Virus record (IMG/VR): IMGVR_UViG_3300045988_130695
Span: 1 to 43,531 of that record
DNA length: 43,531 bases
From: a virus
Direction: 5' to 3' (one strand)
The translations under genes were made by a program, and so were the position numbers. A model generated the notes under the pieces. That model was not told the origin of the DNA and searched no databases. It worked only from the letters and a program-made list of their open reading frames with translations. Below are positions 1,819 to 43,454 of the stretch, one piece after another; the stretch's first letter is position 1; each line of letters opens with the position of its first letter.

Positions 1819-2184
1819 TCAGCGTTTAAGCTGTTGTAACCCTGCACGTAACCTTGATAAATTATCATTTGGCTGTTGCCCTTGATTAATATCAGGCTGA
1901 ACAGTTCCGCCGGTTCCCTGTAAATCACCGACTATATTTTTTACTTTGTTAAGATCTACACCAGCAGCCTTAGCAATAAATCCAGCCATAGGATTATTTA
2001 AATATCCATTGACCTTAGTAACAATGTCTGAACTAACACCATTCTTAGCCAAAGCGTTTAGCGCATCACCCTTACTATTAACCTTGTTCGCTACATTCAT
2101 CGCCGTCGCCCATGCTTCCGCAAGGCGGTTCGTGTCCTGCTGGTTTAGTCTCAGCATTTGTGCTACAGCTTGTGGATTGATCAT
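1819..2184 (-). CDS. Hypothetical protein (121 aa from MINPQAVAQ..)
   Basis: ORF track 1819..2205. GAGGTG lies 7 nt before ATG 2184. The gene overlaps the 3' end of the upstream gene by about 107 nt. Confidence 0.55.
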   Translation of the reverse strand: MINPQAVAQMLRLNQQDTNRLAEAWATAMNVANKVNSKGDALNALAKNGVSSDIVTKVNGYLNNPMAGFIAKAAGVDLNKVKNIVGDLQGTGGTVQPDINQGQQPNDNLSRLRAGLQQLKR

Positions 2185-2500
2185 TTTTAAGCACCTCGAT
2201 TTCACGCTTCATATTCTGCATTTCTTTCAGCATATCTGCCATAAGTTCCGTTTGTTCCTGCATCTGCTGTTCTGGTGTTTTAGGTTGGGTAATTACTTTA
2301 AGTTCAACAAGCTTGTTATAATATTCATTACTGATTTTTTCTAACTCATCATACGCATTTTGAGTAACTCCAATCTTCTGCCTGTTCCCATAAAAATCAA
2401 CCTGAATAATATTTGTTCCATCTACAATGCAAGTCATCGTTTGTGGATATGTAGTAAGTACAGAACTGCTTGTAATTCCTAAATTCATATTGCCACTCAT
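2078..2500 (-). CDS. Hypothetical protein (140 aa from MSGNMNLG..)
   Basis: ORF track 2078..2518. GGAGG lies 7 nt before the second ATG (2500). The last ~35 codons overlap the next gene and look low-complexity. Confidence 0.55.
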   Translation of the reverse strand: MSGNMNLGITSSSVLTTYPQTMTCIVDGTNIIQVDFYGNRQKIGVTQNAYDELEKISNEYYNKLVELKVITQPKTPEQQMQEQTELMADMLKEMQNMKREIEVLKNDQSTSCSTNAETKPAGHEPPCGSMGDGDECSEQG

Positions 2501-2618
2501 AGTCTTGCCTCCGTTCATTTATCTTAACTATATTATCCGTTAAATCAGCTCTTATAATCCGTCAACATTCCCTCATAATTCCCTAATATGGGCATAAAAA
2601 ATAAGGCAGCCACAACTA

Positions 2619-2861
2619 TTATGTGACTGCCTTTAATGCTCTCTTAACTGAATTATACGCCTGCTGCAGATCTCTTTCGACCGTTTGCACTGACGTATCT
2701 ATTTTCATTGCTATTTGATAGTTTTTAAGATCGTGAATAAATTTGAGTTCTATAATTTCTATTTGCCGCGGCGTTAGTTTGGCTTCTGAAATGATTGCTT
2801 CAAATTCCTTTCGTGTGGACTGCGAAAGCCAATCTCTTGCCTGCAAACGGCAAGTATCCAT
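2619..2861 (-). CDS. Small HTH regulator resembling sigma-70 region 4 (80 aa)
   Basis: LTPRQIEIIELKFIHDLKNYQIAMKIDTSVQTVERDLQQAYNSV is a typical region-4/LuxR-type HTH layout. AGGTGA SD. Confidence 0.55.
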   Translation of the reverse strand: MDTCRLQARDWLSQSTRKEFEAIISEAKLTPRQIEIIELKFIHDLKNYQIAMKIDTSVQTVERDLQQAYNSVKRALKAVT

Positions 2862-2865
2862 ATAA

Positions 2866-3327
2866 TCACCTGCTCGCTGCTATAGCTCCTACTAATACCC
2901 CTCCTGCAAATCCCCAAAAGGCCTTCTGTCTCTGCTTTAATTCACTTCTGGACTTTTCTTGTTTTATTTGAATGCTCAACGTCTGCAAGGATTTGTTTTG
3001 CTCTGCTATTGTTTTTTTGGAGTTCGACAATGATTCCTGCGCAAGCATTAGCTCGCTCCTTATCTTCTGATAAGATAAACGCTGCTCTTCGATTAGCTTC
3101 TTCAGCTCGTTCGAGTTCATCTGCTGCAGTTCCAACGTGTTCGATAGCCCTATCAACAGATTTTCCTGTCTGTTTATTATCGTCTGCAATTCGTTGAACT
3201 GTTCCCTGGACATCGTTATTGTTTCCGGAACTTCCTCCGCAAAACAATTTAAAGAAAATGATAAGCACAGCAATAAGGGCAAAACTAATAACAAGATACT
3301 TGCTATACCTGATTTGTTTTTCTTCAT
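2866..3327 (-). CDS. ORF A (153 aa): signal-peptide-like N-terminus, Leu-rich coiled coil, Gly-zipper C-terminal TM (GFAGGVLVGAIAA)
   Basis: ATG start. It shares 2942..3327 with ORF B in another frame. It uses ATA/AGG codons that are rare in the capsid gene. Its unique 3' tail (2866..2941) does look coding. Confidence 0.4.
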   Translation of the reverse strand: MKKNKSGIASILLLVLPLLLCLSFSLNCFAEEVPETITMSREQFNELQTIINRQENLLIGLSNTLELQQMNSNELKKLIEEQRLSYQKIRSELMLAQESLSNSKKTIAEQNKSLQTLSIQIKQEKSRSELKQRQKAFWGFAGGVLVGAIAASR

Positions 3328-3349
3328 TCACTTTCCGCCCTTCTTTCAA
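2942..3349 (-). CDS. ORF B (135 aa): N-terminal TM anchor (YLVISFALIAVLIIFF) plus helical charged ectodomain, i-spanin-like topology
   Basis: TTG or GVG-type start. First codon positions are G-rich and Ile codons are ATT/ATC, as in the capsid gene, so this frame looks like the primary coding frame across the overlap. Confidence 0.5.
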   Translation of the reverse strand: MKEGRKVNEEKQIRYSKYLVISFALIAVLIIFFKLFCGGSSGNNNDVQGTVQRIADDNKQTGKSVDRAIEHVGTAADELERAEEANRRAAFILSEDKERANACAGIIVELQKNNSRAKQILADVEHSNKTRKVQK

Positions 3350-3492
3350 GTTGATTTTTATTTCATTATCATTAAGATAGTTCTATTTTCAATATAATCA
3401 ACCTGTGCGCCGTTTTCTATACTCCCACTTATATTTCCTAGTGTTTTGGAGATAAAACAACGCACAGGCTAATTATGTGGCTGGGTTTTATC

Positions 3493-3573
3493 TTACAGAT
3501 TGTAATAAGTAATGCACCCTACCAAAATCGCAAGAGCAATACCAGCCCAAATCAAAATACGCTGTTTTTCCAT
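3493..3573 (-). CDS. 26-aa peptide MEKQRILIWAGIALAILVGCITYYNL with lipobox-like LVGC (tiny lipoprotein or single-TM peptide)
   Basis: Not in the ORF track. Strong AAGGAGGTGA SD 6 nt upstream of ATG 3573. It lies 24 nt downstream of the endolysin stop. Confidence 0.5.
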   Translation of the reverse strand: MEKQRILIWAGIALAILVGCITYYNL

Positions 3574-3597
3574 ATTAGTCACCTCCTTATGCAATCT

Positions 3598-4143
3598 TTA
3601 CCAATTATGATGCCACCAGATAGCCTTACCACGAATAACATCACCGCCTGGTTTCAGTTCTCCGTCGCCTGGCACATCTAGCAATTTCCACAAGTCCCAG
3701 CGTTCAAAAGTAGTTGCCGGGCCGTAGTCATCTAAGTCTGCTGCTTCTGCATGTGTCATTACGGTATCGGCATTAATCTCCAATCCAAGTTCCTCACACA
3801 GTACAGCTACAACTTTCGCCATACTATCTATCTGTAACTCTGTCGGTGGCACGTTGCCAAAGTCGATATGCCCATCAGCATGAGCTACAGCATCTACACA
3901 GCACGCTAAAGCAATCCCAATAGCTCTAGAATTGCGCCGCCATGTATGAGCCTTATATTCAGTTAAATCTTCTGTTGTCGCCATAACAGCGCCGTCGCTA
4001 TCAATGTTTAAGTGATAGTCACTAAAAAACTGGTGATAATAACCAGCTGACCAATGTAGATAGATCTTATCAATATTACCTCTAGCCCTTGCTGCTAACT
4101 GCCGCAGTTCATCTAAAGTGATTCTTTTTGTTACTGCCCCCAT
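3598..4143 (-). CDS. Endolysin, N-acetylmuramoyl-L-alanine amidase (Amidase_2/PGRP-type)
   Basis: Motifs read by eye: IYLHWSAGYYHQFFSDYHLNIDSDGAV .. AHTWRRNSRAIGIAL .. THAEAADLD. AGGAGG lies 9 nt before ATG 4143 (the track start 4197 overlaps the holin). Confidence 0.75.
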   Translation of the reverse strand: MGAVTKRITLDELRQLAARARGNIDKIYLHWSAGYYHQFFSDYHLNIDSDGAVMATTEDLTEYKAHTWRRNSRAIGIALACCVDAVAHADGHIDFGNVPPTELQIDSMAKVVAVLCEELGLEINADTVMTHAEAADLDDYGPATTFERWDLWKLLDVPGDGELKPGGDVIRGKAIWWHHNW

Positions 4144-4456
4144 TTTCATCTGCCTCCTGTTCAAATTTATCAGGGACACCGTCCCCGTCTTTATCAACTA
4201 AACTCGTAGCTATGAAAGTCACAAATGCAACCATAGCCGGTCCTATAACCTCTCTTATCAGTGCTAGAAGATCAGACATAACAATCTTATCCAACCACAA
4301 CCACATATACATCCACGCAGCGTAATAGGTCAGTATCAGTAAAACGACTGCAATAAAATAGCCTACAATGACAGCCATTATTTTTGGCGACATTGAGGCT
4401 ACTTTATTTCTGGCACTCACTATTAAGTTTTTTATTTTCTCAAACATAAATATCAC
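4109..4456 (-). CDS. Putative holin (115 aa, multiple TM segments, acidic/charged C-terminus)
   Basis: Position immediately upstream of the endolysin. Hydrophobic segments IMAVIVGYFIAVVLLILTYYAAWMYMWLWL and GPAMVAFVTFIATSL. ATGA overlap with the upstream gene. Confidence 0.6.
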   Translation of the reverse strand: MIFMFEKIKNLIVSARNKVASMSPKIMAVIVGYFIAVVLLILTYYAAWMYMWLWLDKIVMSDLLALIREVIGPAMVAFVTFIATSLVDKDGDGVPDKFEQEADENGGSNKKNHFR

Positions 4457-10846: not shown

Positions 10847-11326
10847 GTGAAAAAAATATTGCTAATGCTATTTATTCTATTCTCTTTTACTAATATCGTT
10901 CTAGCTAATGAATCACTGTATTTTACAAATCAAGACGTTAATACAAGTATAAAAATAGCGTTTAAATCACTCAACTACAATATGGATTCTAAAACGACTT
11001 ATTTTGATAACGAATGGGTCATGCCAATAACATTTTTAGATAATTTACATACAGAGGCATTACTCATGAAAGTAGCTATAAAAAATGCTGAACTTACACC
11101 ATCTACATCTATCAAAGATAAGATATTATGTGAGCATATCCTTCAACAAACTCAAGAATTAGTTTTAGCAAGAGTAAAAGCTAGAATTTTATCTTATTCA
11201 TTAGCCAAATTACCAGCACAATATCCGAACGATGGTTTTACAAATAAAATATTAGAAGATACTGCTAATGATATAGCAAGAATAAAATCAAACCTAGAAA
11301 AAAGTTTAAAAAGTTTGTGCACCTAA
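10847..11326 (+). CDS. Secreted hypothetical protein (159 aa, signal peptide MKKILLMLFILFSFTNIVLA), AT-rich moron on the opposite strand
   Basis: GTG start with GAAGGG SD and a classic signal peptide. Followed directly by a bidirectional terminator. Confidence 0.65.
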   Translation: MKKILLMLFILFSFTNIVLANESLYFTNQDVNTSIKIAFKSLNYNMDSKTTYFDNEWVMPITFLDNLHTEALLMKVAIKNAELTPSTSIKDKILCEHILQQTQELVLARVKARILSYSLAKLPAQYPNDGFTNKILEDTANDIARIKSNLEKSLKSLCT

Positions 11327-17427: not shown

Positions 17428-19704
17428 TTACCACTCCTCGTTAATTTCTCCTCTTAATGCCGCTAAGTGACGTTGTTTGATAGATTCAATAGCATCACTG
17501 AAATTCATTGCCGCCAAACCAGTGCGCTCACTGGCTCCCCAATCACTGAACCACGGAGTACTTTCATTTTGCTGTACTGCGGTTTCATTCTGCTGTGGCA
17601 TCTCCAGTAAATGCGGAGCTGCATCTACACCATTGCTCAAAGCTATAGCAGCAATCTGCTTATTGAGCTCCTGGATATCCATAGGCCTATTTTCTTCTGT
17701 AACTTTTTTCAATGCCGATACTTGATATAAATCATTAGGGTTTATAGCTCCAAAAAATGTTTTTGCACTTCCCAAATCAATATTATTGCCGTTACGTTTT
17801 TGATAAATATCTATATAAGGGGAAAGATTAGGTGAAAGGCTACTCTTTAAAGAGCCCCATTCAAGTTGCTTACTGTTGAAGCTTTTATAAATAGCACGAT
17901 TTTTAAACGCCTCTTTTAGAACTTCGTTCCCTGTCGCAAATCTTGCATCAGGGTCAGTAATATCTTGCAATGCATTATCCAGAAAAGCCTGCAAATCTCC
18001 GCGTTCCACTTTATCATCAATAGTTTCATCAATTATAATAGCTAAACGTTTATCAACATCCTTATTTCTTGGATCTTGATTTCTAGCAAAAGCCAATAAC
18101 CTGCTTCTATCTGCTTCACCCAAGACTGTTGCATTTTGGTTGATTAATGATACTGCTTCGGCTGGTGTTACAGTGCTATTCGTAATTGCATCCTTGATCG
18201 ATTTATAAATGCCACTATTAGATACCGCAGCGGCAGCTTTTGTCTGAATGCCTATTAAATCATCACCGAATTTTAATAACGTCCGTTCTACATCTGCATC
18301 TCCACCAGAAGCACTAAAAACCATATTTCTCATATCCTGCGAATCAATAATACCTGTTTTAAAATTATCCCATAATCTTTGTTCTATATTTTTTATGATC
18401 ATATTTTGCTGATTAGTTTTAATGGCATCATTAATATTTTTCTGTTGCACATAATTGTTCCAGGCCTTCTGCCTATCTTCCAACGTAGGCGCATCGCTTA
18501 TCGGATGAGCAAAACCTAAAACTTTATAATGATCTAAATCCAAAGCAGCAACTCCATGCGTACCGCTTTGAATTACTTTTCCTGTAGAAGCATCATAAAC
18601 CCCTACATGATCGCTGTCGTCATTATCTTCCCAATCCCAATAAACAATATCACCATTTCGAAGCTGATTCCGTTGGGTAAAAAATACTCCATTGTCCTTT
18701 GCATCTTCCATATTGGTTGGCGCCCACGTATTTCCTTCTTTAGCTCCAGCAGATCTCAACCATCTATTGATACTAATAGTGCAAGTATTCTCACCATAAT
18801 TATTACCTATATCTGCACTAGCTGCTTTTACAATCGCCTTACCATCAACCTCTGTTTTAAAATTATCGCCAAAGATATAATCACGTGCAGCGCCTTCATC
18901 CTCACCAAAAGTAGCATAAAGGTTCTGTCCCATGTTAAACAGCCGTTCTTCTTGTTTGCGAGCATAAACATTTTTAGCATAGGCACTTGTTACGCCCGGA
19001 TCCATATAAGGACCATATTTTTCAACATAAGCTTCGGCCGTATTTATATCGCCATTAGCATAACTTCTGTCTATCAACGCCTGACCTAATACTCCAGTCC
19101 ATTTTCTATACTCTAAATCAAGCCTTTCTCTTCCATATGTTCCATATCTGGAATTTATGGCGTAATCAATTTCTTTTTGTACATCGGCTATAACTGCAGG
19201 GTCATTAGGAGATAAAACAGCCTTTTGAACAGAACTATTTATAGAATTAGCAAAAGTAGTATTCTGCCAGGCTTCAAACTGCTGCGCTCTGTATTGCCCC
19301 AAAACTCTGCGATTAGCATTATCAGTTTGCTGGGTGCTGTAATCAAATAACATAGCACCTTTGCCGTACTTTACGCTTTGAGGACTTTGAGCCATAAGCT
19401 CGCTGCGTATCTTTCTTTCACCAGCTTCATACTCACCGACAATGTCAAGAGCGCCTTTTTCTTTTTTCTGCATCAACTGCATTCTTAGATCGTTAGTACG
19501 TTTTACATACTCATTATTAGCCTGCAGAACGTCGGTTCTTATGATCTGCTCTCTTACATGCTCAACACCGGCCTGAATAATTCTACCGGTCTGGGATGAT
19601 TCTCTTGCAACAGCCTGCTGACCGCTGTTATCATAGCGGACATTAGATACTTTACTTGCCGGCGCTCCTAACTGCGCACCTACTTGGAAAATGTCGATTG
19701 CCAT
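17428..19704 (-). CDS. Internal virion protein with CHAP/NlpC-P60-type peptidoglycan hydrolase domain (758 aa)
   Basis: GENTCTISINRW (catalytic Cys context) and DSDHVGVYD (His) at about 18560..18800. Position between ejection proteins. Confidence 0.75.
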   Translation of the reverse strand: MAIDIFQVGAQLGAPASKVSNVRYDNSGQQAVARESSQTGRIIQAGVEHVREQIIRTDVLQANNEYVKRTNDLRMQLMQKKEKGALDIVGEYEAGERKIRSELMAQSPQSVKYGKGAMLFDYSTQQTDNANRRVLGQYRAQQFEAWQNTTFANSINSSVQKAVLSPNDPAVIADVQKEIDYAINSRYGTYGRERLDLEYRKWTGVLGQALIDRSYANGDINTAEAYVEKYGPYMDPGVTSAYAKNVYARKQEERLFNMGQNLYATFGEDEGAARDYIFGDNFKTEVDGKAIVKAASADIGNNYGENTCTISINRWLRSAGAKEGNTWAPTNMEDAKDNGVFFTQRNQLRNGDIVYWDWEDNDDSDHVGVYDASTGKVIQSGTHGVAALDLDHYKVLGFAHPISDAPTLEDRQKAWNNYVQQKNINDAIKTNQQNMIIKNIEQRLWDNFKTGIIDSQDMRNMVFSASGGDADVERTLLKFGDDLIGIQTKAAAAVSNSGIYKSIKDAITNSTVTPAEAVSLINQNATVLGEADRSRLLAFARNQDPRNKDVDKRLAIIIDETIDDKVERGDLQAFLDNALQDITDPDARFATGNEVLKEAFKNRAIYKSFNSKQLEWGSLKSSLSPNLSPYIDIYQKRNGNNIDLGSAKTFFGAINPNDLYQVSALKKVTEENRPMDIQELNKQIAAIALSNGVDAAPHLLEMPQQNETAVQQNESTPWFSDWGASERTGLAAMNFSDAIESIKQRHLAALRGEINEEW

Positions 19705-19726
19705 ATTCTAGCCTCCTTTTGGGTAT

Positions 19727-19759
19727 AGAAAAAGCGCTTTAACAAATTGTTAAGCGCTT
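19727..19759 (-). terminator. Rho-independent terminator just upstream of the 758-aa gene RBS
   Basis: On the - strand: AAGCGCTTAAC-AATTT-GTTAAAGCGCTT followed by TTTTCT. It overlaps the -35 of the + strand promoter. Confidence 0.6.
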
Positions 19760-19775
19760 AAAGGTGTGTTATAAT
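19747..19775 (+). promoter_or_regulatory. Promoter TTGTTA-17-TATAAT (TG-extended) for the small + strand ORF
   Basis: -35 at 19747..19752, 17-nt spacer ending in TGT, -10 at 19770..19775. Confidence 0.55.
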
Positions 19776-19836
19776 GTTGTCCGAGATAGTTTAACTATGT
19801 TGGCTTATCAGTCCGTAACTGATTGGTGGTGATCCT

Positions 19837-19914
19837 ATGAGCATATATCAAGCATTATCCCTAATGATAGCGTTTGGTATTCTCGTGGCTACCATTATTC
19901 TTGCCGTAAAATAG
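19837..19914 (+). CDS. 25-aa hydrophobic peptide MSIYQALSLMIAFGILVATIILAVK (type I toxin / holin-like toxin candidate)
   Basis: Not in the track. GGTGGTGA SD 5 nt upstream. Single TM plus terminal Lys. Opposite strand to all surrounding genes. Confidence 0.55.
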   Translation: MSIYQALSLMIAFGILVATIILAVK

Positions 19915-19924
19915 CAAGAAAATA

Positions 19925-20063
19925 AGCCCAACGTAAGGTCGCGGGCTCGTTTTCAATCACATTCTTGTTACGAGATGAGCTAACGCTACCACACGTTAAA
20001 CTATCTCTTTTCACATTTTACAATTATGAGGGAGAGCCAGCGTGCGACCACTGACTATCTCTT
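19925..20063 (-). ncRNA. Candidate antisense/antitoxin sRNA, convergent with the 25-aa ORF transcript
   Basis: It lies downstream of a near-consensus - strand promoter and contains no ORF. It would end at the AGCCC/GGGCT hairpin with T-rich flanks near 19926..19948. Boundaries are estimates. Confidence 0.3.
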
Positions 20064-20069
20064 TTCGTT

Positions 20070-20098
20070 TATTATATAATACATTTCGTACTAATGCA
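20070..20098 (-). promoter_or_regulatory. Promoter TTGCAT-17-TATAAT on the - strand
   Basis: -35 at 20098..20093 and -10 at 20075..20070. Located 34 nt downstream of the 215-aa gene stop. Confidence 0.55.
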
Positions 20099-20131
20099 AC
20101 ACTCTCTTACCACTCTCTTGGTACTCTTTTC

Positions 20132-20779
20132 TTAAATCCAGTTATAACCTGTGCTTGTACCATAAGTAGTTTTCCACTTACTAGAATCATAACCGCCTAA
20201 AGATATATTACCACTATTACCCCATCCATACCCGTCACTTCCTTTTCCATACGAGGAAGCACCTTGCTTTCCTGCGCTCTTAGGACTGTATAAACTACCT
20301 GCAAGAGATAACCCACTCATAAGCATATTATTCATAAGTGCACGCTTACCGGCTTTACGGTAATTGCGTGCATTTTGATTATAGATATCACGTTGATTAA
20401 CAAGGTCAGTAGACTGCTGAAAAATATTCTCAACGCCTTGCCTTGAATTATAGCGTTCAATAGCAAGCTCTGTTTCCATATTATACGCACTGTCAGCTAA
20501 AGCGTTTGCCGCACTGCCTGAAGCTGTTATACCGGAAGCGCCTATATTAGCCCTCTGCTGGCTTAACATAGCGTTCATACGCCGGCGTTTGTTTTCTTCG
20601 TTGATAGTATTTGACTTAGACTGTTCTTCAGCCTGTGCCTGCAGTTTATCTGCGTTCTGATTCGCTATCTGAGCATTTACCTCTGCCTGTTGAGCGGCAG
20701 CGTTATATTGCTGCTGCTGCGCTCTGCCCGAAATAAAGCCACCCAAAAGAGTGGCGCCTATTGCTGCCGCTACGCCCAT
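20132..20779 (-). CDS. Internal virion/ejection protein (215 aa; N-terminal hydrophobic segment, Gln/Ala-rich coiled coil, Gly/Ser/Tyr-rich tail)
   Basis: Composition and position (first of three consecutive internal-protein genes after the nozzle-like protein) resemble T7 gp14 / P22 ejection protein sets. Confidence 0.6.
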   Translation of the reverse strand: MGVAAAIGATLLGGFISGRAQQQQYNAAAQQAEVNAQIANQNADKLQAQAEEQSKSNTINEENKRRRMNAMLSQQRANIGASGITASGSAANALADSAYNMETELAIERYNSRQGVENIFQQSTDLVNQRDIYNQNARNYRKAGKRALMNNMLMSGLSLAGSLYSPKSAGKQGASSYGKGSDGYGWGNSGNISLGGYDSSKWKTTYGTSTGYNWI

Positions 20780-21249
20780 TATTCATCATCCTTTCTAAAC
20801 TCAAAAAAGTGATGCGGCAGATTATAAACTCCATGCGGCGCTGGTTCATGTATTTCTGCGCCAAGCCATTTAAGCCAACGCATTATATTATCATTTCCAA
20901 CATTGACCCAGTTATATAACCTGTCGTATCTCTTTAAAAGCCCTCTTACAGCCTTTTTAGTCTGCCTTCCGACAAATACCTTATGGTTCTCCGTTTCCTT
21001 CGTCATAAGCAGCCATACGCGACCCTCGTCGCTCATTATCGAAGCTTTTCTCACTCCATATACAGCAGCGGGTACGCCGTTGATATGCAGGCAGCCGATT
21101 TCATCACTGTGCTTCAATCCATCTAAAATATCATTAAGAGCGTTAGGGCCAATAGCAGAAAATAGTTCACTGTAATTATCTAGTTTAAGATTAGCCGCTA
21201 TATACTCAGCGTCTGCCCTTGTGGGCTTTACAAATTCATACTTTACCAT
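20779..21249 (-). CDS. Virion-associated hypothetical protein (156 aa)
   Basis: ORF with start/stop coupling to its neighbours, inside the tail/internal protein block. No confident family. Confidence 0.6.
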   Translation of the reverse strand: MVKYEFVKPTRADAEYIAANLKLDNYSELFSAIGPNALNDILDGLKHSDEIGCLHINGVPAAVYGVRKASIMSDEGRVWLLMTKETENHKVFVGRQTKKAVRGLLKRYDRLYNWVNVGNDNIMRWLKWLGAEIHEPAPHGVYNLPHHFFEFRKDDE

Positions 21250-21257
21250 AATACACC

Positions 21258-24059
21258 TTACCCTTCTATTTCCGGAATCAAAGATAATACAGTCATCGGC
21301 AGCGGGTCAGGCTGTTTAATTATTATCTGCTGAGTTTCATCATAAGTGGCAGACTTGATCGTTACTTTAAATTTACCTGTTTGCAAACTAATCGGTTCCC
21401 CATAGGCTTCATTACTGCGCCATTTAAATTCATCTAATTCATTCTCCTTCATTCCAAACAATCCACCACGGCTATCTTTAAGTAATAATGTAACTGTAGC
21501 AATTCGTTTCTTCCGACTTAAATATGTGCCATCTTGAGCTGTAAAATCTATAGGCAGTGTTTTTATTTCCGCATCTATAGGCAGCCCTACATGGACCTTC
21601 TTGTATTTATTTCCAAGAAGAACCTTACCGTTTTCTACAGTTTGCTGAGGAAGTACGTTTCCATCAGCTAATATAGCCACAGTATACCCTTCTAAATGCT
21701 CAAGACCTGATATTTCATCGGTCGGCTCTCCTTCATAGGTTATACCACTGTCTACGAAAAACTGATCCTCTACATTAGTACTTTTATCACGGCTTTCCAT
21801 TATTTCCACATAATACTGCCCGCCACGCTCAATTACTGCATATAACTTATCTTCTGTTGCTCCTCCAATATTACATACACTAACAAACTTCCCGCCTGCC
21901 GTGGTATGCTGGTGCCATGCGTAGATATCCTGTTCCTTGATGTATGTAAGCCCTAACAGCAAACCATCATCACGCACACACCAAACAATACTGTTAGGTA
22001 TCTGCTGATAGGTCATAGATATTATTTTATGCCCTTCAAACAAGTGCGAAGCTAATAAATTTAAATCATCACCGGTATATTTATCAACATCATAGCTGTA
22101 AGCAAGGTCACGTATGATATTGCCCTGGTGCTGCACATAAATAATCCTGCTGCCGATAGTGACAGGATTAACATCTGACACACCCCTATATTCCTGCGGT
22201 TGACTTAAAACATTACTTCCTGTAATGGCTTTGCCTCCGCCGCTTACTTTAAATTCTCCACCGGCTGTTAACAGCAACATTTCACCAAAAGCTATAATTG
22301 CCTTAATGCCATTCATTTGTCCACCGTTTAAAGTAGCCGTAATTCCATCATCATCGGCAGACGGTATGCTTGTTCCAAAGTTATAATAGTCTCCTGTTTT
22401 GCTTGTCCAGAATGTCTGCGGAAATCCTTTACTTCCCGCAAAGACTAACCTGTCTTCATAAAAACCTGTTGCAGAAGGATACCCTTTTTCACCATTCCAA
22501 GCAGCAAAAGCAAAATCGCGGGTTTCATCTGTAGAAGCCAACTGTTTTTTTACAGTCCCTTTCACTACTGTAGGACTGACATATTCAGTGATCAATACAT
22601 GGCCCGTATAATCTCCGCCGATGCTTTGAATGGTTATATAGCCTCTCTGCTTCTCATTTTCACCGCTCCAAACGCCTGTATTAAATTCAGTAGAAGTAAC
22701 TCTGTAACTAGCAATACTTTCAGACGTGTTCTCCTCAGTCAAGCTATAATTCTGGCTTCTGTTCCCACTCTGTGTTCTTACATTTACCCATTGCAAAGAA
22801 ACAGGATCATATTTTTCCAAACTAAAATTACCATCCCAAAAACCAAAACTTTCTACATAGACATTGGATTTCGGTAATACGCTAACCTGCAGATCTCCAC
22901 CTGTACTAATTGGTGTCCCTTTTTTGTAATCTGTTTCTAAAAAGTGAGTTAGAGAAAAAAGGCTCCCTTCATCACCCTTGGAAAAAATAGCCGAAGAAGC
23001 AGTCAGGGTTATATCACCATACACCTCCGAAGCTTTTACTGTTGCATTATTACCAATAGATAAAGTGTATGAAAGCCTAATCCAACCATCATTACCACTC
23101 ATACCACTAACATTACCATAGCCACCATTGCCACCAAGAGCACCGGATCCATAACTTGTGCCATTACCACCATCATCAGCAGCAGTTGCACCTTTTCCAC
23201 CACCGCCACCCAATGCATTGATTCCTAAAGCACTGGAAGTCCCACCACTATTACCATTATCAGCACTACCAGCAATTCCAGTTTGTTTTCCTTGTCCACC
23301 TGTACCTCCTGCACCAACTATTAAAGAAATTGGTTCAGAAGGTATTTCTAATATTTCTTTTGTTATAAAAGCACCTCTTCCACCTGTTCCACCACTAAAT
23401 TTGGTTGAAAGATGTTCAGTTTTTCTTTCTATGCCACCTCCACCGCCGCCACCGCCTCCAGCCATTTCAATATTTATTGACAACGCCGAAGACGGTATTG
23501 TTATATTATATGCACCTGGTTTTCTCCATTCTAATACTTTAGTAATGATGCTATTATTATTATACCTAGTTTCATCAAACGGTCCGCCTGTAATATCCAT
23601 TGCCTCAAAGCGCCAGTCTAAATTGCCATATCTTGTAAGTGTCATTGGTGCATGTGCAGGATGAACAATGAAAAGTACGTCAGCACTCTGTGTATATTTT
23701 ATTTTTGCAGCATCTTCTAAATCTTTATCAGCAAAAAAGTTTTCTATGCTATATGGTGAGCCATCTTCTTTAACAACAATACCACCATCTGTATAAAACT
23801 GGCATCTGCCAGCAGTAATTTCAACAATATAATTTTGATCTGTGCTGTACATAAATGGTATTAGCACAGCCTTTTTATTATTATAAGTCTGCGCTATGAA
23901 CTTAAAGCCTGGTCTATTAGCAGCGCCACCATAACGCAGAACGAAAAAATTTCTTAAAACAGCAGCCCCGCTGTCATATTTAGCAATATCAGTACGTCCA
24001 TACATAGACGGTGACAATTCACCGCCCGCAAAACTTGATTTTAATTGATAGAGTGCCAT
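21258..24059 (-). CDS. Large tail (nozzle / tail tubular B-like) protein, 933 aa, carrying an inserted Gly-rich module (about 23054..23528)
   Basis: N-terminus MALYQLKSSFAGGELSPSMYGRTDIAKYDSGAAVLRNFFVLRYGGAANRPG is typical of podovirus tail proteins (from memory). It follows the adaptor-like gene. Confidence 0.7.
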   Translation of the reverse strand: MALYQLKSSFAGGELSPSMYGRTDIAKYDSGAAVLRNFFVLRYGGAANRPGFKFIAQTYNNKKAVLIPFMYSTDQNYIVEITAGRCQFYTDGGIVVKEDGSPYSIENFFADKDLEDAAKIKYTQSADVLFIVHPAHAPMTLTRYGNLDWRFEAMDITGGPFDETRYNNNSIITKVLEWRKPGAYNITIPSSALSINIEMAGGGGGGGGGIERKTEHLSTKFSGGTGGRGAFITKEILEIPSEPISLIVGAGGTGGQGKQTGIAGSADNGNSGGTSSALGINALGGGGGKGATAADDGGNGTSYGSGALGGNGGYGNVSGMSGNDGWIRLSYTLSIGNNATVKASEVYGDITLTASSAIFSKGDEGSLFSLTHFLETDYKKGTPISTGGDLQVSVLPKSNVYVESFGFWDGNFSLEKYDPVSLQWVNVRTQSGNRSQNYSLTEENTSESIASYRVTSTEFNTGVWSGENEKQRGYITIQSIGGDYTGHVLITEYVSPTVVKGTVKKQLASTDETRDFAFAAWNGEKGYPSATGFYEDRLVFAGSKGFPQTFWTSKTGDYYNFGTSIPSADDDGITATLNGGQMNGIKAIIAFGEMLLLTAGGEFKVSGGGKAITGSNVLSQPQEYRGVSDVNPVTIGSRIIYVQHQGNIIRDLAYSYDVDKYTGDDLNLLASHLFEGHKIISMTYQQIPNSIVWCVRDDGLLLGLTYIKEQDIYAWHQHTTAGGKFVSVCNIGGATEDKLYAVIERGGQYYVEIMESRDKSTNVEDQFFVDSGITYEGEPTDEISGLEHLEGYTVAILADGNVLPQQTVENGKVLLGNKYKKVHVGLPIDAEIKTLPIDFTAQDGTYLSRKKRIATVTLLLKDSRGGLFGMKENELDEFKWRSNEAYGEPISLQTGKFKVTIKSATYDETQQIIIKQPDPLPMTVLSLIPEIEG

Positions 24060-24061
24060 AA

Positions 24062-24652
24062 TTATGCCCCCGTAAATCTTGCTGCCGCTAATCTGTCAAT
24101 GTGCGGATCCAGCAAATGTTCTTCATCAGCGTCAGTAGAGCTGGCTTCTGCAAAATAAGCGTTATAAGCCTGGATACACATCTGCGTTAAATCCAATTTG
24201 CCAGTCAACGCATAAGCAATTTCTGCAGCGAGCTTCCACCCAAATGCCTCTACAAATTGAGCATCATATAAATCTGCGTCGGTAACATCTACAGTGTATT
24301 CAATCCAGGCATTGCCGATATTAGTATAAATAGCTTTCCCCTGCTTATCAGAAACAATTTTGTACTGATTGTCTCTAGGAAGTCCGCAGAACTGCTCATT
24401 GTACATCATTCTCAAGCACACTGCATCAGCAGGATACCGATATGCATATTTCCAGTTAGGCGGAACATCGGCAAGCGCGGCAAGCTGCACGCTTCTTGTT
24501 GCAAATGTCCACGGGAATTTTCTCAAAACCGCCTGCCTGACATAATCATAGCAACGCCGGCACACTCGTGCTGGTTCGCTTGCTTCGTCAAGCCGCTCTA
24601 TTGTAGCTACGCCTATATGATTAAGAGCAATATTACAAATCTCAACTTTATC
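24062..24652 (-). CDS. Head-tail adaptor / tail tubular A-like protein
   Basis: MDKVEICNIALNHIGVATIERLDE.. N-terminal pattern. GGTGGTGA SD before ATG 24652 (the track start is 24691). Confidence 0.6.
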   Translation of the reverse strand, partial: DKVEICNIALNHIGVATIERLDEASEPARVCRRCYDYVRQAVLRKFPWTFATRSVQLAALADVPPNWKYAYRYPADAVCLRMMYNEQFCGLPRDNQYKIVSDKQGKAIYTNIGNAWIEYTVDVTDADLYDAQFVEAFGWKLAAEIAYALTGKLDLTQMCIQAYNAYFAEASSTDADEEHLLDPHIDRLAAARFTGA

Positions 24653-24707
24653 CATACTTTCACCACCTGTTATAGAGAAAGCCGGAGGCATATGCCCCCG
24701 GCTATTC

Positions 24708-34559: not shown

Positions 34560-36440
34560 CTAAAATAAATTTATCGGTATCTCGGCTTCTGCTGCTATAC
34601 CTTGCATAACATATAGTGCATTAGGTAGAGCTATTCCATTGCCCCACATCTTGTACTCTGCGCTGTCCGTATGCAATTTGTTATACCAGGTAAGTATTTG
34701 TGCTTTTGTGTAGTCTTTAACGGCTTTGTTGTTGATTTTTGCATAGGCATTACGCACTTCAATCCAAAATTTATATTCTTCATCAGTGAAACTTTCTTTT
34801 TTATTAAGATGTCCCCATAAATCAGGGAAACCTTGAAGTCTTGCGCATTCGGTGGGGGTTAAGCGGCGTACTATGTAACGCGCCTGCACTGCCGCCGGTC
34901 GGTCTATAGTATTCAGCGTGTAGCACTCATTTTCTCGCCAGCCTTTGTCGTTACAGCCTGCCGTATCTGCTCGATCTATGCCGTTACCTTGCAGACAGTA
35001 AACAACACCTGGTACATTATTGCCGCCTGTACCGCATCTTGCGGTTAAGGTAGGCGTTTTTTCTATGTATTCGCTCGGAGTACGTAACCTGGCTTCTCCT
35101 ATGTCATAACAACGTACTGCAGGTTCGACGACTAAACACGTATAATCCGTAATTCGATTGTTATGGTCTCCTGTAATAGTGCTTACGATTTGACCATCAC
35201 CGTTGCCCCTTGCATCGTATACTACGGCTGGGACAGCACCTGCTCTCAGTGTAGGGCTTTGTTCTTCTGCATAGCCTACACCTCTTGTTTTTGCGCTTTC
35301 TTCTGGACAAAAACCAGCGGATACAGTTATACATGGCGGGTTTTTATAATGCGTTGCTTTCAGACAGGGGGCTGTATCGCTCTGCCGTGCGTACTCAGTT
35401 TGACCACCGATATTGTCAACGATAATCGGCTGGAACAGGTATTGATCGTTGTTTGTCGCCAGTGTGGCGGTTTTGTCCTTTTGAACCAGTGCGCCCTTAC
35501 AGCCGCCTTCACAGCCTGAGCGTATTTTTAAGGTGTAAGGGATCATTGCACAGGGATAACCTTGTCCCGCTTGAACTTCAATATTTTCAACAATGAAAGT
35601 TTGCTGTTTCATCCCAGGTTCAGCTTGTATACATCCAGCTTTTTCGCCTAAGTCCCTAATCTCATTTCGTTGATTCTGTGCAAATGCGATTAAAGAGTCG
35701 CTTTCTCCCGCTCGATCATCTGTTCCAACGCAGTTTTGAGCATCGGCGGCAATTCCTTGCCACGGCGTTCTGCCCGCCTCAAAATACCCTCGCAGGCTTT
35801 CGCGCTTAAATAGTATTTCTTGGGCACATTCGCCTCTAAAATCTGCGACAAGGTAGATTCTACGGCGGCGCTGGGGGACTCCCCAATATTGCGCGTCAAA
35901 AACTCGGTATGCAATGCTCCATCCGTCTCCACTGATACAATCTGCATATGCCCAGCCAGCTTGTGGAACCGCAGGCATAACGGCGTTCGGTTCCGTGATT
36001 TTAATAAATTCTTCAAGCACAAGCCGGAAATCTTCTCCCCGATTACTGCTAAATGCTCCTGGTACATTTTCCCAAACAGCGAATCTTGGATAAATTCCAT
36101 TTGTTTTAACCCTCATTTCTTTTATTATTCGGATTGCCTCCATAAACAGCCCGCTTCGTGTTGTTTCTTCGTCGCCGACAGCCGTATGTTTTAAACCAGC
36201 ACGTTTACCAGCTACTGACATGTCTTGACATGGGCTTCCGAAAGTTATAATGTCCACTGGTTCTATCTCTGCACCTTTGATTCTGCTTACATCACCCAAG
36301 TGCTTCATATTTGGAAAACGGCTTTTAGTAACAGCTATTGGATATGGTTCGACTTCCGATGCATAAACAGGCTCTATTCCGCACAAGCTTGCTGCTAAAG
36401 GAAATCCTCCACTGCCATCAAATAAGCTCATTAGTTTCAT
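34560..36440 (-). CDS. DNA (cytosine-5) methyltransferase, large, with several TRD-like modules (probably multispecific, orphan)
   Basis: Motif I LFDGSGGF, IV GSPCQDMS, VI ENVPG, VIII QRRRRIYLV, IX RRLTPTECARLQGFP, X GNGIALP. About 330 aa lie between VIII and IX, with repeated (S/T)xTL-type elements. No restriction endonuclease gene is nearby. Confidence 0.85.
   Translation of the reverse strand: MKLMSLFDGSGGFPLAASLCGIEPVYASEVEPYPIAVTKSRFPNMKHLGDVSRIKGAEIEPVDIITFGSPCQDMSVAGKRAGLKHTAVGDEETTRSGLFMEAIRIIKEMRVKTNGIYPRFAVWENVPGAFSSNRGEDFRLVLEEFIKITEPNAVMPAVPQAGWAYADCISGDGWSIAYRVFDAQYWGVPQRRRRIYLVADFRGECAQEILFKRESLRGYFEAGRTPWQGIAADAQNCVGTDDRAGESDSLIAFAQNQRNEIRDLGEKAGCIQAEPGMKQQTFIVENIEVQAGQGYPCAMIPYTLKIRSGCEGGCKGALVQKDKTATLATNNDQYLFQPIIVDNIGGQTEYARQSDTAPCLKATHYKNPPCITVSAGFCPEESAKTRGVGYAEEQSPTLRAGAVPAVVYDARGNGDGQIVSTITGDHNNRITDYTCLVVEPAVRCYDIGEARLRTPSEYIEKTPTLTARCGTGGNNVPGVVYCLQGNGIDRADTAGCNDKGWRENECYTLNTIDRPAAVQARYIVRRLTPTECARLQGFPDLWGHLNKKESFTDEEYKFWIEVRNAYAKINNKAVKDYTKAQILTWYNKLHTDSAEYKMWGNGIALPNALYVMQGIAAEAEIPINLF
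35690..36100 (-). CDS. Embedded +1-frame ORF (136 aa) inside the methyltransferase gene; candidate overprinted gene
   Basis: ATG 36100 has GAGGG 9 nt upstream. The frame is open through motifs VI-VIII of the host gene. The C-terminal third is protein-like (TLSQILEANVPKKYYLSAKACEGILRRAERRGKELPPMLKTALEQMIE). Confidence 0.35.
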   Translation of the reverse strand: MEFIQDSLFGKMYQEHLAVIGEKISGLCLKNLLKSRNRTPLCLRFHKLAGHMQIVSVETDGALHTEFLTRNIGESPSAAVESTLSQILEANVPKKYYLSAKACEGILRRAERRGKELPPMLKTALEQMIEREKATL

Positions 36441-41427: not shown

Positions 41428-41814
41428 GTGAAATCATTGGGAATAAAAGAGAACATAAAATTACTAAGAGAAAAATATAAACTATCTCAAAAAGATTTGG
41501 CCCTTATCGCGGGAGTTACGGATAAGGCTGTTTCTACATGGGAAAGTGGTGCAAAAGAACCGCGAATGGGTGCCATTCAAAAAATAGCAGATCATTTTGG
41601 ATTAAAAAAAAGTAATCTCATTGAAGATAATGGCCTTACCGAAAAACAGGGTTATTACATTGATCCTGAGGCAGCAAAGATGGCCCAAGAACTTTATGAA
41701 AATCCAGGTATGCGTATATTATTTGATGCGGCCAAAAATGTATCTCCGGAAGATTTAAAAGTAGCTGCAGAACTCATTTCAAGAATGAAAAAGAAAGAAG
41801 AATACGAAGAGTAA
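41428..41814 (+). CDS. CI-like prophage repressor, XRE-family HTH
   Basis: LSQKDLALIAGVTDKAVSTWESGAKEP HTH. The start is GTG 41428 or, fitting the GAGG SD better, TTG 41437. Confidence 0.75.
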   Translation: MKSLGIKENIKLLREKYKLSQKDLALIAGVTDKAVSTWESGAKEPRMGAIQKIADHFGLKKSNLIEDNGLTEKQGYYIDPEAAKMAQELYENPGMRILFDAAKNVSPEDLKVAAELISRMKKKEEYEE

Positions 41815-42335: not shown

Positions 42336-43454
42336 ATGTACGGCGACGGAACAATATGGTACGACAAAGCACGAAAAAAATATTGTTACGACTATTGTGA
42401 CAACGACGGTAAACGTCACCGTAAACGCTTTGCCACCGAAAAAGAAGCCAAAGAATTTAAGAAAGAAATACGGGCAGAACGTGATAAAGGAAATCTTACA
42501 TCCTCTTCTATTACCATTGGAGAATGGGTAATAGAATTTTTAGAAACATATCAAAAACCACACCTGCGCAGCAACAGTTTTGCAAGGCAAAAACAAAGTG
42601 CTAATAAGCTTGCTCCTATTGCGCATATACCAATCGACCAACTCAGCGGCAAAGAAATACAAAAGCTGTATAATAGCTATGACGGTGTTTTAAGTACCTC
42701 TTCAATAAGTAAGATACATAAGTTACTTTTCGCCGCTTACAAGAAAGCTGTGGCTCTGAGAATGGTACAATATAATCCAATGCAAGCTGTTGAACCGGTG
42801 AAAATCAAATATAAAGAAATGTCAGTATTTTCTTTTAGTGAACTGCTTCGCATCTTCCGTGTACTACGGACCAATAAATACTATAAAAAATACTACACAT
42901 TATTTTATTTGCTCCTTGTACTTGGCTGCAGGATAGGTGAACTTCTTGCAATAAAATGGGAAGATATTGATTTTGATAAAAGAGAAATTTGTATACAACG
43001 CGCAAAAGACAGTGGTACTGGTCAAGTATTCCATGATCCTAAAACAAAAGCCGGTATACGTTATATTCCGATTGTCTATGATGCATGCATAGAAAGACTA
43101 AAAGCTATGCAGACAAGTGGTAAAATCACTTATATAAACGGCTTCGTATTTTGTACCGAAAGCGGCAAAGCCCTTAACTATGGAAATATCCGACGTGCTT
43201 GGGTAAAGATATGTGAGTTGGCCGGAGTAAATAAAAATATCCACACATTCAGGCATACATTTGCAACAGCAGCACTCACCAAAGATATACCCATCTTAGA
43301 AGTATCAAGGTGTCTTGGACACGCTGATGCAAACACAACACTTAAAATGTATGGACATGCAATGCCAGGATTTAACAGACATATAATAGACCTTTTTCAG
43401 AAGAAAAAAACAAAGAGTGCGACCAAAACTGCGACCGCAAATCAACAAAGCTAG
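42336..43454 (+). CDS. int: Tyrosine integrase
   Basis: Catalytic signature RIGELLA .. K .. HTFRHTF .. LGHAD .. KMYGH. It ends 32 nt before the attR core. Confidence 0.9.
   Translation: MYGDGTIWYDKARKKYCYDYCDNDGKRHRKRFATEKEAKEFKKEIRAERDKGNLTSSSITIGEWVIEFLETYQKPHLRSNSFARQKQSANKLAPIAHIPIDQLSGKEIQKLYNSYDGVLSTSSISKIHKLLFAAYKKAVALRMVQYNPMQAVEPVKIKYKEMSVFSFSELLRIFRVLRTNKYYKKYYTLFYLLLVLGCRIGELLAIKWEDIDFDKREICIQRAKDSGTGQVFHDPKTKAGIRYIPIVYDACIERLKAMQTSGKITYINGFVFCTESGKALNYGNIRRAWVKICELAGVNKNIHTFRHTFATAALTKDIPILEVSRCLGHADANTTLKMYGHAMPGFNRHIIDLFQKKKTKSATKTATANQQS
43416..43436 (+). repeat. 21-bp repeat AGTGCGACCAAAACTGCGACC (copy 2), inside the integrase C-terminal coding region; candidate arm-type site on the P arm
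   Basis: Exact match to 161..181, lying 50 nt upstream of the att core. Confidence 0.4.

Follow-up and report, generated by a model that had tools for sequence, protein, structure and literature searches.

What occupies the 427 bp (positions 19705-20131) that separate two virion genes, encoding products of 758 and 215 amino acids (aa) and both read from the - strand (17428-19704 and 20132-20779), in the viral genome recorded in IMG/VR as IMGVR_UViG_3300045988_130695? Throughout the text, the window means the whole stretch of 43,531 nt, on whose numbering the coordinates of the cassette are given. A first-pass annotation, made from the letters alone, had delimited the gap correctly and had placed in it, on the + strand, a hydrophobic 25-codon peptide gene facing a convergent promoter, after the manner of type I toxin-antitoxin pairs; nearly all of the elements that it listed are present, with offsets of 0-2 nt. 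We consider it probable, at roughly three chances in four and on the strength of sequence comparison, that a type I toxin-antitoxin cassette of the TxpA/BsrG kind occupies 19712-20099, where a temperate T7-like phage infecting Phascolarctobacterium faecium carries it as a moron on the opposite strand, flanked by its gp14-like and gp15-like genes.

The predicted 25-codon open reading frame (ORF) is where it had been reported, at 19837-19914, and so is the Shine-Dalgarno (SD) sequence GGTGGTGA (19825-19832), 4 nt ahead of the ATG. Its product had been likened to the Hol-Tox peptides, and the profile hidden Markov model of that family (Pfam PF16935, Hol_Tox; gathering threshold 23.3 bits) bears the assignment out: alleles A, B and C (Table 1) score 38.0, 35.5 and 32.2 bits. 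In the same type of scan BsrG, whose sequence we checked and found 100% encoded in SPbeta, scores 34.5 bits, and what we take to be the sequence of TxpA scores 31.3. The peptide has the N-terminal Hol_Tox motif M-[ST]-x-Y-[EQ]-[AS]-L-x-x-M-x-x-F-[GS], followed by a hydrophobic helix and a basic C-terminus, with a grand average of hydropathy of 1.2-1.9 across the alleles; its one basic residue is the C-terminal Lys, and its 25 aa put it at the short end of the family. Ten of 17 N-terminal residues are identical between allele C and BsrG. An exact-sequence cluster look-up leads to the NCBI protein WP_412456443.1, "putative holin-like toxin [Phascolarctobacterium faecium]", and tblastn against phage records returned weak matches only (E of at least 0.03), to Brevibacillus, Streptococcus satellite and Listeria phages. 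The NCBIfam cut-offs were not reached (ComI, 21.4 against 55 bits; PepG1, 11.6 against 70). "Holin-like toxin" annotations fall in the TxpA family, whose members include the 27-aa BH0344 and the homologue EF3263, which is toxic in E. coli and has an antisense RNA of ~110 nt across its 3' untranslated region (UTR) (Fozo et al., 2010, PMC2887945). At the RNA level, a permissive Rfam scan placed the BsrG mRNA family RF01412 on the ORF and its UTRs (19796-19935, + strand; 24.5 bits, below the gathering score, E 7.5e-4).

Comparison with relatives indicates that this ORF is a gene. Among 55 IMG/VR relatives fetched through their gp14 gene, the flanks of the gap are nearly invariant and the middle consists of divergent alleles; together with allele A', found later, there are four alleles of 25 codons each, with indels confined to the sequence outside the ORF. 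Residues M1, Y4, A6, L7, S8, L9, M10, F13, L16, A18 and K25 are invariant across them, and between the main alleles the proportion of synonymous differences (pS) is 0.41-0.86 against 0.27-0.31 for nonsynonymous ones (pN), by which measure the ORF is under purifying selection. Disruption of the frame in relatives, a prospect that the first-pass annotation had raised, was not encountered: the ORF is intact in 35 of the 35 distinct cassette sequences recovered. Outside the ORF, the cassette of the window carries a 54-bp segment identical to allele B, which is missing in L009, L042 and L046 and is replaced by a C-type version in L019-type cassettes. Within it lies what had been described as a partial third copy of a 13-nt repeat; this copy is present, as 8 nt at 20054-20061 rather than at 20052-20060, and on the evidence of the alleles recombination at the 13-nt ACTATCTCTTTTC box has left it as a scar.

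The two promoters had been proposed from their hexamers. On the + strand the putative toxin promoter, P(+), reads TTGTTA-17-TATAAT with a TG at 19747-19775, exactly as described; every allele has the same two hexamers, and so has a second genomic site of the cassette, where the TG is kept too, the spacer has 18 nt with 5-6 positions changed, and the promoter scanner calls P(+). On the - strand the TTGCAT-17-TATAAT of P(-) is likewise present, one base away from the position first given, and "near-consensus" overstated its -35, which agrees with TTGACA at 3 of 6 positions. At the second site P(-) reads TTGCAA-17-TATAAT, with the same spacer length and 8-9 of the 17 spacer bases different, and there the promoter scanner calls it. 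The - strand terminator reported at 19727-19759 is also present, as a part of the cassette, with a 3' arm that runs into the -35 of P(+); its compensatory changes at the second site (GACGCTTAAC/GTTAAGCGTC) give a perfect stem of 10-11 bp followed by T6. The simple terminator scanner missed the window version because of a 1-nt bulge and called the bulge-free version in L095. Since the hexamers are kept while the spacers diverge, and since the terminator covaries, both promoters and the insulating terminator appear to belong to the mobile unit and not to the host operon. A role of P(-) as the promoter of gp15/gp16 is unlikely, given the two - strand terminators in between and the presence of the P(-)-to-terminator unit at the other locus. 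The GAGATAGT box was considered as a genome-wide phage-specific promoter and rejected: it has just 5 copies in 43.5 kb, 3 of them inside the cassette, and the window contains no ORF of the size of a phage RNA polymerase.

The distribution of the cassette is that of a unit which moves. In L060, L066, L096, L097 and L100, blastn similarity to the window is confined to 19712-20099 (91-99% identity); the gp14 and gp15 genes of these divergent T7-like carriers have no nucleotide similarity to those of the window, and their gp15 proteins are 21-52% identical or undetectable. In L095, L098, L104, L106, L110 and L114, allele B occurs at the second genomic site, between a homologue of the 146-aa ORF of the window (2078-2518) and a DnaJ-domain gene, with similarity limited to 19729-20086; the copy in L095 lies at 2830-3280, upstream of the 146-aa ORF homologue. 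The same site in the window (~2518-2600) is empty, and no second cassette was found in the window. A wider search for gp14 relatives yielded one extra locus, the distant T7-like L188, in which gp14 abuts gp15 with neither gap nor cassette. Its sharp boundaries, L188 and the empty second site all speak for a discrete mobile module that carries two convergent promoters and an insulating terminator. Conservation at two genomic sites, covariation and a pS well above pN together indicate that the ensemble of elements is non-random.

We turn to the transcripts that the two promoters would make. The AGCCC/GGGCT hairpin at 19925-19949, on which both were said to converge, is real; it is probably not a mere meeting point, being an element of the - strand in alleles B and C. 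A hairpin of unrelated sequence stands directly past the stop codon in every allele, stronger on the - strand throughout and followed there by U-rich tails; in alleles B, C and C2 the margin is wide and G·U pairs specific to the - strand occur, three of which in C2 have A·C mismatches as their + strand equivalents. In allele A its z-score is about -4 on both strands, and this version, which also folds on the + strand, is by modelling a candidate bidirectional terminator. The predicted antisense RNA would be fully complementary to the 3' UTR of the predicted toxin mRNA and has a fold z of -3.7, with a 5' stem-loop at 20061-20032 (-13.8 kcal/mol). On the + strand, every single-box allele has an equivalent of the hairpin at 19966-20012 followed by UUUUCGUUU, and every allele has a hairpin of -9 to -10 kcal/mol at the box, with UUUUCGUUUAUU after it.

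In the 5' UTR of the toxin gene, the small hairpin ATCAGT (19807-19812)/ACTGAT (19818-19823) was found as reported, as was the 13-nt inverted repeat (GAGATAGTTTAAC, 19783-19795 versus 19995-20007). The repeat had been taken to link this UTR to the antisense RNA region; its 3' arm does lie within the antisense-complementary region, and what it forms is in all likelihood the helix that closes the toxin mRNA from 5' to 3' end. In a six-sequence alignment this helix has 13 pairs, with 100% of cells paired and 5 compensatory pairs, against 37-46% in slid controls, and a second long-range helix holds several U·G pairs. In both long-range helices the wobbles put U in the 5' arm and G in the 3' arm, which is compatible with + strand RNA only and makes it most likely that transcription of the toxin mRNA continues beyond the central hairpin as far as the box, giving a transcript of ~225-290 nt closed by the 5'-3' helix. 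The predicted 3' overlap is ~96-150 nt if the mRNA ends at the box hairpins and ~25-35 nt if it ends at the central hairpin. In each allele the minimum-free-energy fold leaves the SD or start region paired, and the folds of the toxin mRNA are far more stable than those of shuffled sequences (z -4.7 and -6.6). Trans-pairing of the antisense RNA with the toxin 5' UTR, as in par, was rejected for want of suitable direct repeats: the repeats are inverted, so that the two RNAs would share, and not complement, the repeat sequence.

Table 1. Features of the cassette, its alleles and the neighbouring virion module (window numbering; energies in kcal/mol).
Feature	Position	Strand	Remarks
Whole cassette, 388 bp	19712-20099	opposite to the gp14-like/gp15-like virion operon	unit common to divergent phages
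Intrinsic terminator	19727-19759	-	hairpin 19732-19759, T-run 19727-19731; -12, z -5.1
Toxin promoter P(+), TTGTTA-17-TG-n-TATAAT	19747-19775	+	putative start ~19782-19783
Toxin 5' UTR	19782-19836	+	closing-helix 5' arm 19783-19795; second long-range helix arm ~19798-19808; hairpin 19807-19823; SD
Putative toxin ORF, 25 codons, MSIYQALSLMIAFGILVATIILAVK	19837-19914	+	Pfam PF16935 Hol_Tox (TxpA/BsrG family)
Central hairpin AGCCC/GGGCT	19925-19949	-	with U-rich tail 19915-19949; putative antisense RNA terminator
Antisense (antitoxin) RNA, predicted	19915-20066	-	~150 nt here, ~95-105 nt in single-box alleles
Hairpin GAGAU..AUCUC + UUUU	19966-20012	+	-9.4, z -2.9
54-bp B-type allele segment	20013-20066	+	direct repeat D2; identical to allele B
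Hairpin then UUUUCGUUUAUU	20026-20061	+	second candidate toxin mRNA terminator; mRNA ~290 nt
Second ACTATCTCTTTTC box, 13 nt	20054-20066	+	within the 54-bp segment
ACUAUCUC-UUUU box			predicted + strand toxin RNA end lies past it
Antisense promoter P(-), TTGCAT (20099-20094)-17-TATAAT (20076-20071)	20071-20099	-	putative start ~20064, ~7 nt past the -10
Peptide, allele A (window)			MSIYQALSLMIAFGILVATIILAVK
Peptide, allele A'			MSVYQALSLMIAFGVLVATIILAVK
Peptide, allele B			(L/M)STYEALSLMIAFSTLIAIVILGCK
Peptide, allele C			MTVYEALSLMVTFGTLVAIILSKSK (or ..SNRK)
Central hairpin, allele A			- strand -16.2, + strand -14.5
Central hairpin, allele B			- strand -15.1, + strand -9.0
Central hairpin, allele C			- strand -14.6, + strand -7.6
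Central hairpin, allele C2			- strand -15.4, + strand none found
Closing helix, allele A			5' arm GAGATAGTTTAAC; 3' arm GTTAAACTATCTC
Closing helix, allele A'			5' arm ..TTTGACGG; 3' arm CCGTCAAG..
Closing helix, allele B			5' arm ..TCAGTG; 3' arm CACTGA..
Closing helix, allele C			5' arm ..TTTGATA; 3' arm TATCAAG..
Tail tubular proteins	24062-24691 and 21258-24059	-	
gp13-like gene	20779-21249	-	
gp14-like gene, 215 aa	20132-20779	-	Pfam T7_gp14, 43.5 bits
gp15-position protein, 758 aa	17428-19704	-	sub-threshold CHAP match
gp16-position protein, 2021 aa	11361-17426	-	
Amidase_2 endolysin	3598-4197		~15 kb away from toxin ORF

The first-pass annotation had compared the geometry of the locus with bsrG/SR4 and txpA/RatA, and the predicted promoters, terminators, closing helix and sizes do fit these systems (PMC6562991; PMC3834814). 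The type I systems of B. subtilis lie on prophages or prophage-like elements and have toxin RNAs of 255-294 nt, antitoxins of 100-222 nt and 100-140 bp of 3' complementarity (PMC6562991). In bsrG mRNA (296 nt), nt 1-35 pair with 232-262 in helix P1, the SD is double-stranded and the terminator SL4 stands at the end; binding of SR4 to the 3' part opens P1, extends the pairing of the SD and leads to cleavage by RNase III (PMC3834814). Like bsrG/SR4 of SPbeta, the cassette is prophage-borne and encodes a putative toxin of PF16935, with the shared N-terminal motif MTVYE-L--M--FG-L. A convergent antisense gene with its own promoter and terminator over the toxin mRNA's 3' end is predicted here in silico and by comparison, and a structured toxin mRNA with a P1-like 5'-3' closing helix and the SD in a paired region is predicted in silico; the predicted sizes are near as well (toxin RNA ~230-290 versus 294 nt and, if the mRNA ends at the box hairpins, overlap ~96-150 versus 100-140; PMC6562991). 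The two differ in that BsrG has 38 aa and a KKK tail as against 25 aa and one terminal Lys, and SR4 has 180 nt as against ~95-150 nt for the predicted antisense RNA. Whereas bsrG has a separate SL4, in the single-box alleles the 3' arm of the closing helix would itself be the terminator arm; unlike bsrG/SR4, moreover, the cassette has a diderm Negativicute as host, lies among the genes of a virion operon and has an insulating terminator in addition.

Among the other known systems, txpA/RatA, EF3263 and BH0344 share the toxin family with the cassette (PMC2887945). TxpA and RatA differ from it in size (59 aa and 222 nt), and the known loci are chromosomal or in the skin element and not in a structural operon. 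The par locus of pAD1 (fst/RNAII) resembles it in that its toxin and antisense genes converge on a bidirectional terminator common to both, a role for which the hairpin of allele A, folding on both strands, would be suited. In par, of a different toxin family, direct repeats read in opposite directions give 5' complementarity, whereas the repeats of the cassette are inverted, both RNAs would share 5' sequence and the repeat would close the toxin mRNA instead. The toxins of phiCD630-1 of Clostridioides difficile are longer, belong to another family and have a monoderm host, and the cassette is likened to them by description only. As described in PMC7699646, CD0977.1-RCd11 of that phage is, like the cassette, a small hydrophobic toxin with an antisense RNA on a prophage of a gut Firmicute, and type I pairs of C. 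difficile prophages are reported there to aid the maintenance of mobile elements.

By analogy with these systems, P(+) would produce in the lysogen a highly folded toxin mRNA of ~230-290 nt whose 5' end pairs with its 3' UTR as in P1 of bsrG, and sequestration of the SD would keep its translation poor. P(-) would produce an antisense RNA of ~95-150 nt, perfectly complementary to the toxin 3' UTR; once the duplex formed, decay of the RNase III type would set in and the closing helix would come apart, in the way that SR4 acts on bsrG mRNA. If the prophage were lost, or host transcription shut off, the antisense RNA would no longer be replenished, and toxin would be made and would damage the membrane; the prophage would thereby be stabilised, or a competing infection aborted. 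The terminator at 19727-19759 would meanwhile keep antisense transcription out of gp15/gp16 in the lysogen.

Several points weigh against this reading. Promoter-like matches in 2 kb number 7 against 5.0 expected, which is not significant, and matches at chance level in such A+T-rich DNA mean that the case must rest on the comparison with relatives; the -35 of P(-) is weak in the window, where the scanner did not list this promoter. With 25 aa and a single C-terminal Lys, the peptide is shorter than the characterised toxins (27-59 aa). The 24.5 bits for RF01412 fall short of the gathering score of 55, and none of the Rfam antitoxin RNA families matched, even at E up to 10, for which reason we claim membership of the same toxin family and a shared working design, and not orthology with bsrG/SR4. 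At gathering thresholds Rfam gave zero matches across the whole window, and ARAGORN found no tRNA in the gap, which disposes of a known non-coding RNA or tRNA as its content. The + strand terminators are modest (-9 to -10 kcal/mol; z -0.3 for the second), and folding is largely strand-symmetric, the strand call depending on a handful of G·U pairs in ~4 independent allele lineages. Finally, two - strand terminators within the late virion operon require a mechanism of read-through in the lytic cycle.

Other accounts of the locus can be given. Were the peptide a solitary small-membrane-peptide moron with no RNA antitoxin, P(+) would drive a lysogen function such as exclusion or membrane modulation, and P(-) and the - strand hairpins would work for the virion operon, whether as an internal promoter, as an attenuator or as sites where the gp15/gp16 mRNA is processed. 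This we regard as unlikely. The cassette does lie always directly upstream of a - strand gene, the conserved block at the gp14/gp15 site includes the ribosome-binding-site region of that gene, and both the poor -35 of P(-) in the window and the partial strand symmetry of the structure signals would be at home in such an account; yet two - strand terminators separate P(-) from the downstream gene, the P(-)-to-terminator unit also stands upstream of the unrelated 146-aa gene at the second site, and family relatives with tested antisense RNAs show the same geometry (PMC2887945; PMC6562991). That the peptide acts instead in the timing of lysis, through an activity of the Hol-Tox/Tmp1 type and outside any toxin-antitoxin pair, strikes us as very improbable: the gene runs against the late operon under a sigma-70-type promoter of its own, is remote from the endolysin gene (Table 1) and has a convergent promoter and a set of terminators that a lysis gene would not need. 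In favour of a lysis role, Hol-Tox is named for holin-like activity, complementation of a lysis-defective phage is reported for one member (cited in PMC11357604), and the Hol-Tox ORF of L132-L134 lies between holin-like ORFs and a putative lysozyme-like gene on the same strand.

An explanation at the level of DNA, in which the segment would be non-functional as a gene and would be MITE-like (a miniature inverted-repeat transposable element), invertible, or a linker serving as recombination anchor between mosaic gp14/gp15 alleles, is hardly credible and already largely refuted by coding selection and covariation. The 13-nt inverted repeats flanking the ORF, the 54-bp recombination scar and the highly mosaic neighbours around a near-invariant cassette (gp14 C-terminus and gp15, 21-100% identity) speak in its favour. 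An invertible switch or MITE bounded by the inverted repeat was, however, rejected: blastn found no copy in inverted orientation among the 55 gp14-anchored loci, no target-site duplication was seen by eye at the repeat ends, and the repeat arms covary by allele with U·G wobbles that point to pairing in RNA; the purifying selection on the ORF argues in the same direction.

The phage that carries the cassette is a temperate T7-like podophage, combining a T7-like head, tail and internal-virion module, with its virion genes on the - strand, and genes for lysogeny, namely an integrase (42336-43454, +), a repressor-like gene (41428-41814, +) and anti-repressors. Phascolarctobacterium faecium DSM 14760, in which the phage is integrated, has a gp14 gene of 99% identity on a 105-kb contig, and its prophage carries allele C; the host is accordingly a human-gut Negativicute. 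A blastn search in "distant" mode with 19300-20500 as query found no nucleotide relative among cultured phages. In the ejection proteins downstream of the cassette, a weak CHAP/endolysin-like segment falls at residues ~301-380 of the 758-aa protein and a MuF_C domain at residues 616-713 of the 2021-aa protein; in this phage of a diderm Firmicute, the segments may have an enzymatic role or one in toxin delivery. Opposite to the virion genes and just downstream of the gp16-like gene, a 159-aa ORF (10847-11326, +) with no Pfam match may be a further opposite-strand moron, and a 626-aa protein (34560-36440) has matches to families of phage DNA methyltransferases and, more weakly, to one of primases.

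The immediate neighbours of the cassette are mosaic. In most relatives (L019-L055) the C-terminal ~39 residues of gp14 (window 20100-20253) are swapped for unrelated sequence, gp14 matches ending at residue 176 and nucleotide similarity breaking at 20253, and the identity of the gp15-like proteins beside the same cassette ranges from 100% down to 21%; this mosaicism places the cassette at a hot spot for recombination within the ejection-protein module. Just upstream of P(-), at the equivalent of window ~20100, some relatives (L029, L033, L034 and L047 among the repeat or duplication loci) have a tandem 21-nt unit, GTACAGTCCGTA(C/T)TAATGCAA, in 2-3 repeats that hold the -35 of P(-), which may represent extra -35 boxes, an operator or slippage; in L047 the whole antisense region (~19906-20099) is tandemly duplicated. 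Elsewhere, unrelated viral contigs (L132-L134, ~2090-4090; L091; L094, L101 and L111) encode further Hol-Tox peptides, of 27-29 aa and with KK at the end. In L132-L134 the ORF lies on the same strand as its neighbours, between small holin-like membrane ORFs and a lysozyme-like ORF that we take, from its N-terminal sequence and not from a family library, to be of the GH25 type, an arrangement which suggests that some Hol-Tox members may be true components of lysis cassettes.

The position of the type I cassette within the operon invites a bolder proposal, namely that it is wired into virion expression and is more than a passenger addiction module. Several lineages, with flanking genes that lack nucleotide similarity to one another, have the two - strand terminators and the convergent promoter precisely at the junction of gp14 and gp15. 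We hold the proposal to be doubtful, and a conjecture at this stage. If it were true, expression of the gp15/gp16 ejection proteins would hinge on read-through or antitermination; read-through of the late operon would supply a long antisense RNA that silences the toxin in productive lytic growth; and the toxin would fire only upon loss of the prophage or aborted late transcription, as a checkpoint or abortive-infection switch. The near-invariant cassette would then also be a homology anchor for the swapping of gp14 C-terminal and gp15 alleles.

At NCBI the peptide already bears the machine annotation of a putative holin-like toxin, and the cassette introduces no new principle; the additions made here are a probable antisense partner, the predicted architecture of the RNAs, a series of alleles, evidence of mobility, and a host and location out of the ordinary. 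For annotators, the lesson is to expect 25-codon genes and antisense partners in the "empty" gaps of phage structural modules. The placement in an ejection-protein operon raises the question of how late transcripts pass two terminators, and the four natural alleles with their covarying helices provide a comparative set with which to ask whether the P1-like helix, the sequestration of the SD and the antisense terminator are essential. A literature search found three papers in which Negativicutes and type I systems are both mentioned and, judged by title and abstract, none on type I systems in Negativicutes. If our reading is correct, the cassette would extend the TxpA/BsrG type I design from monoderm Bacilli and Enterococcus to a diderm gut Firmicute, Phascolarctobacterium of the Negativicutes, and to its temperate T7-like podophages.

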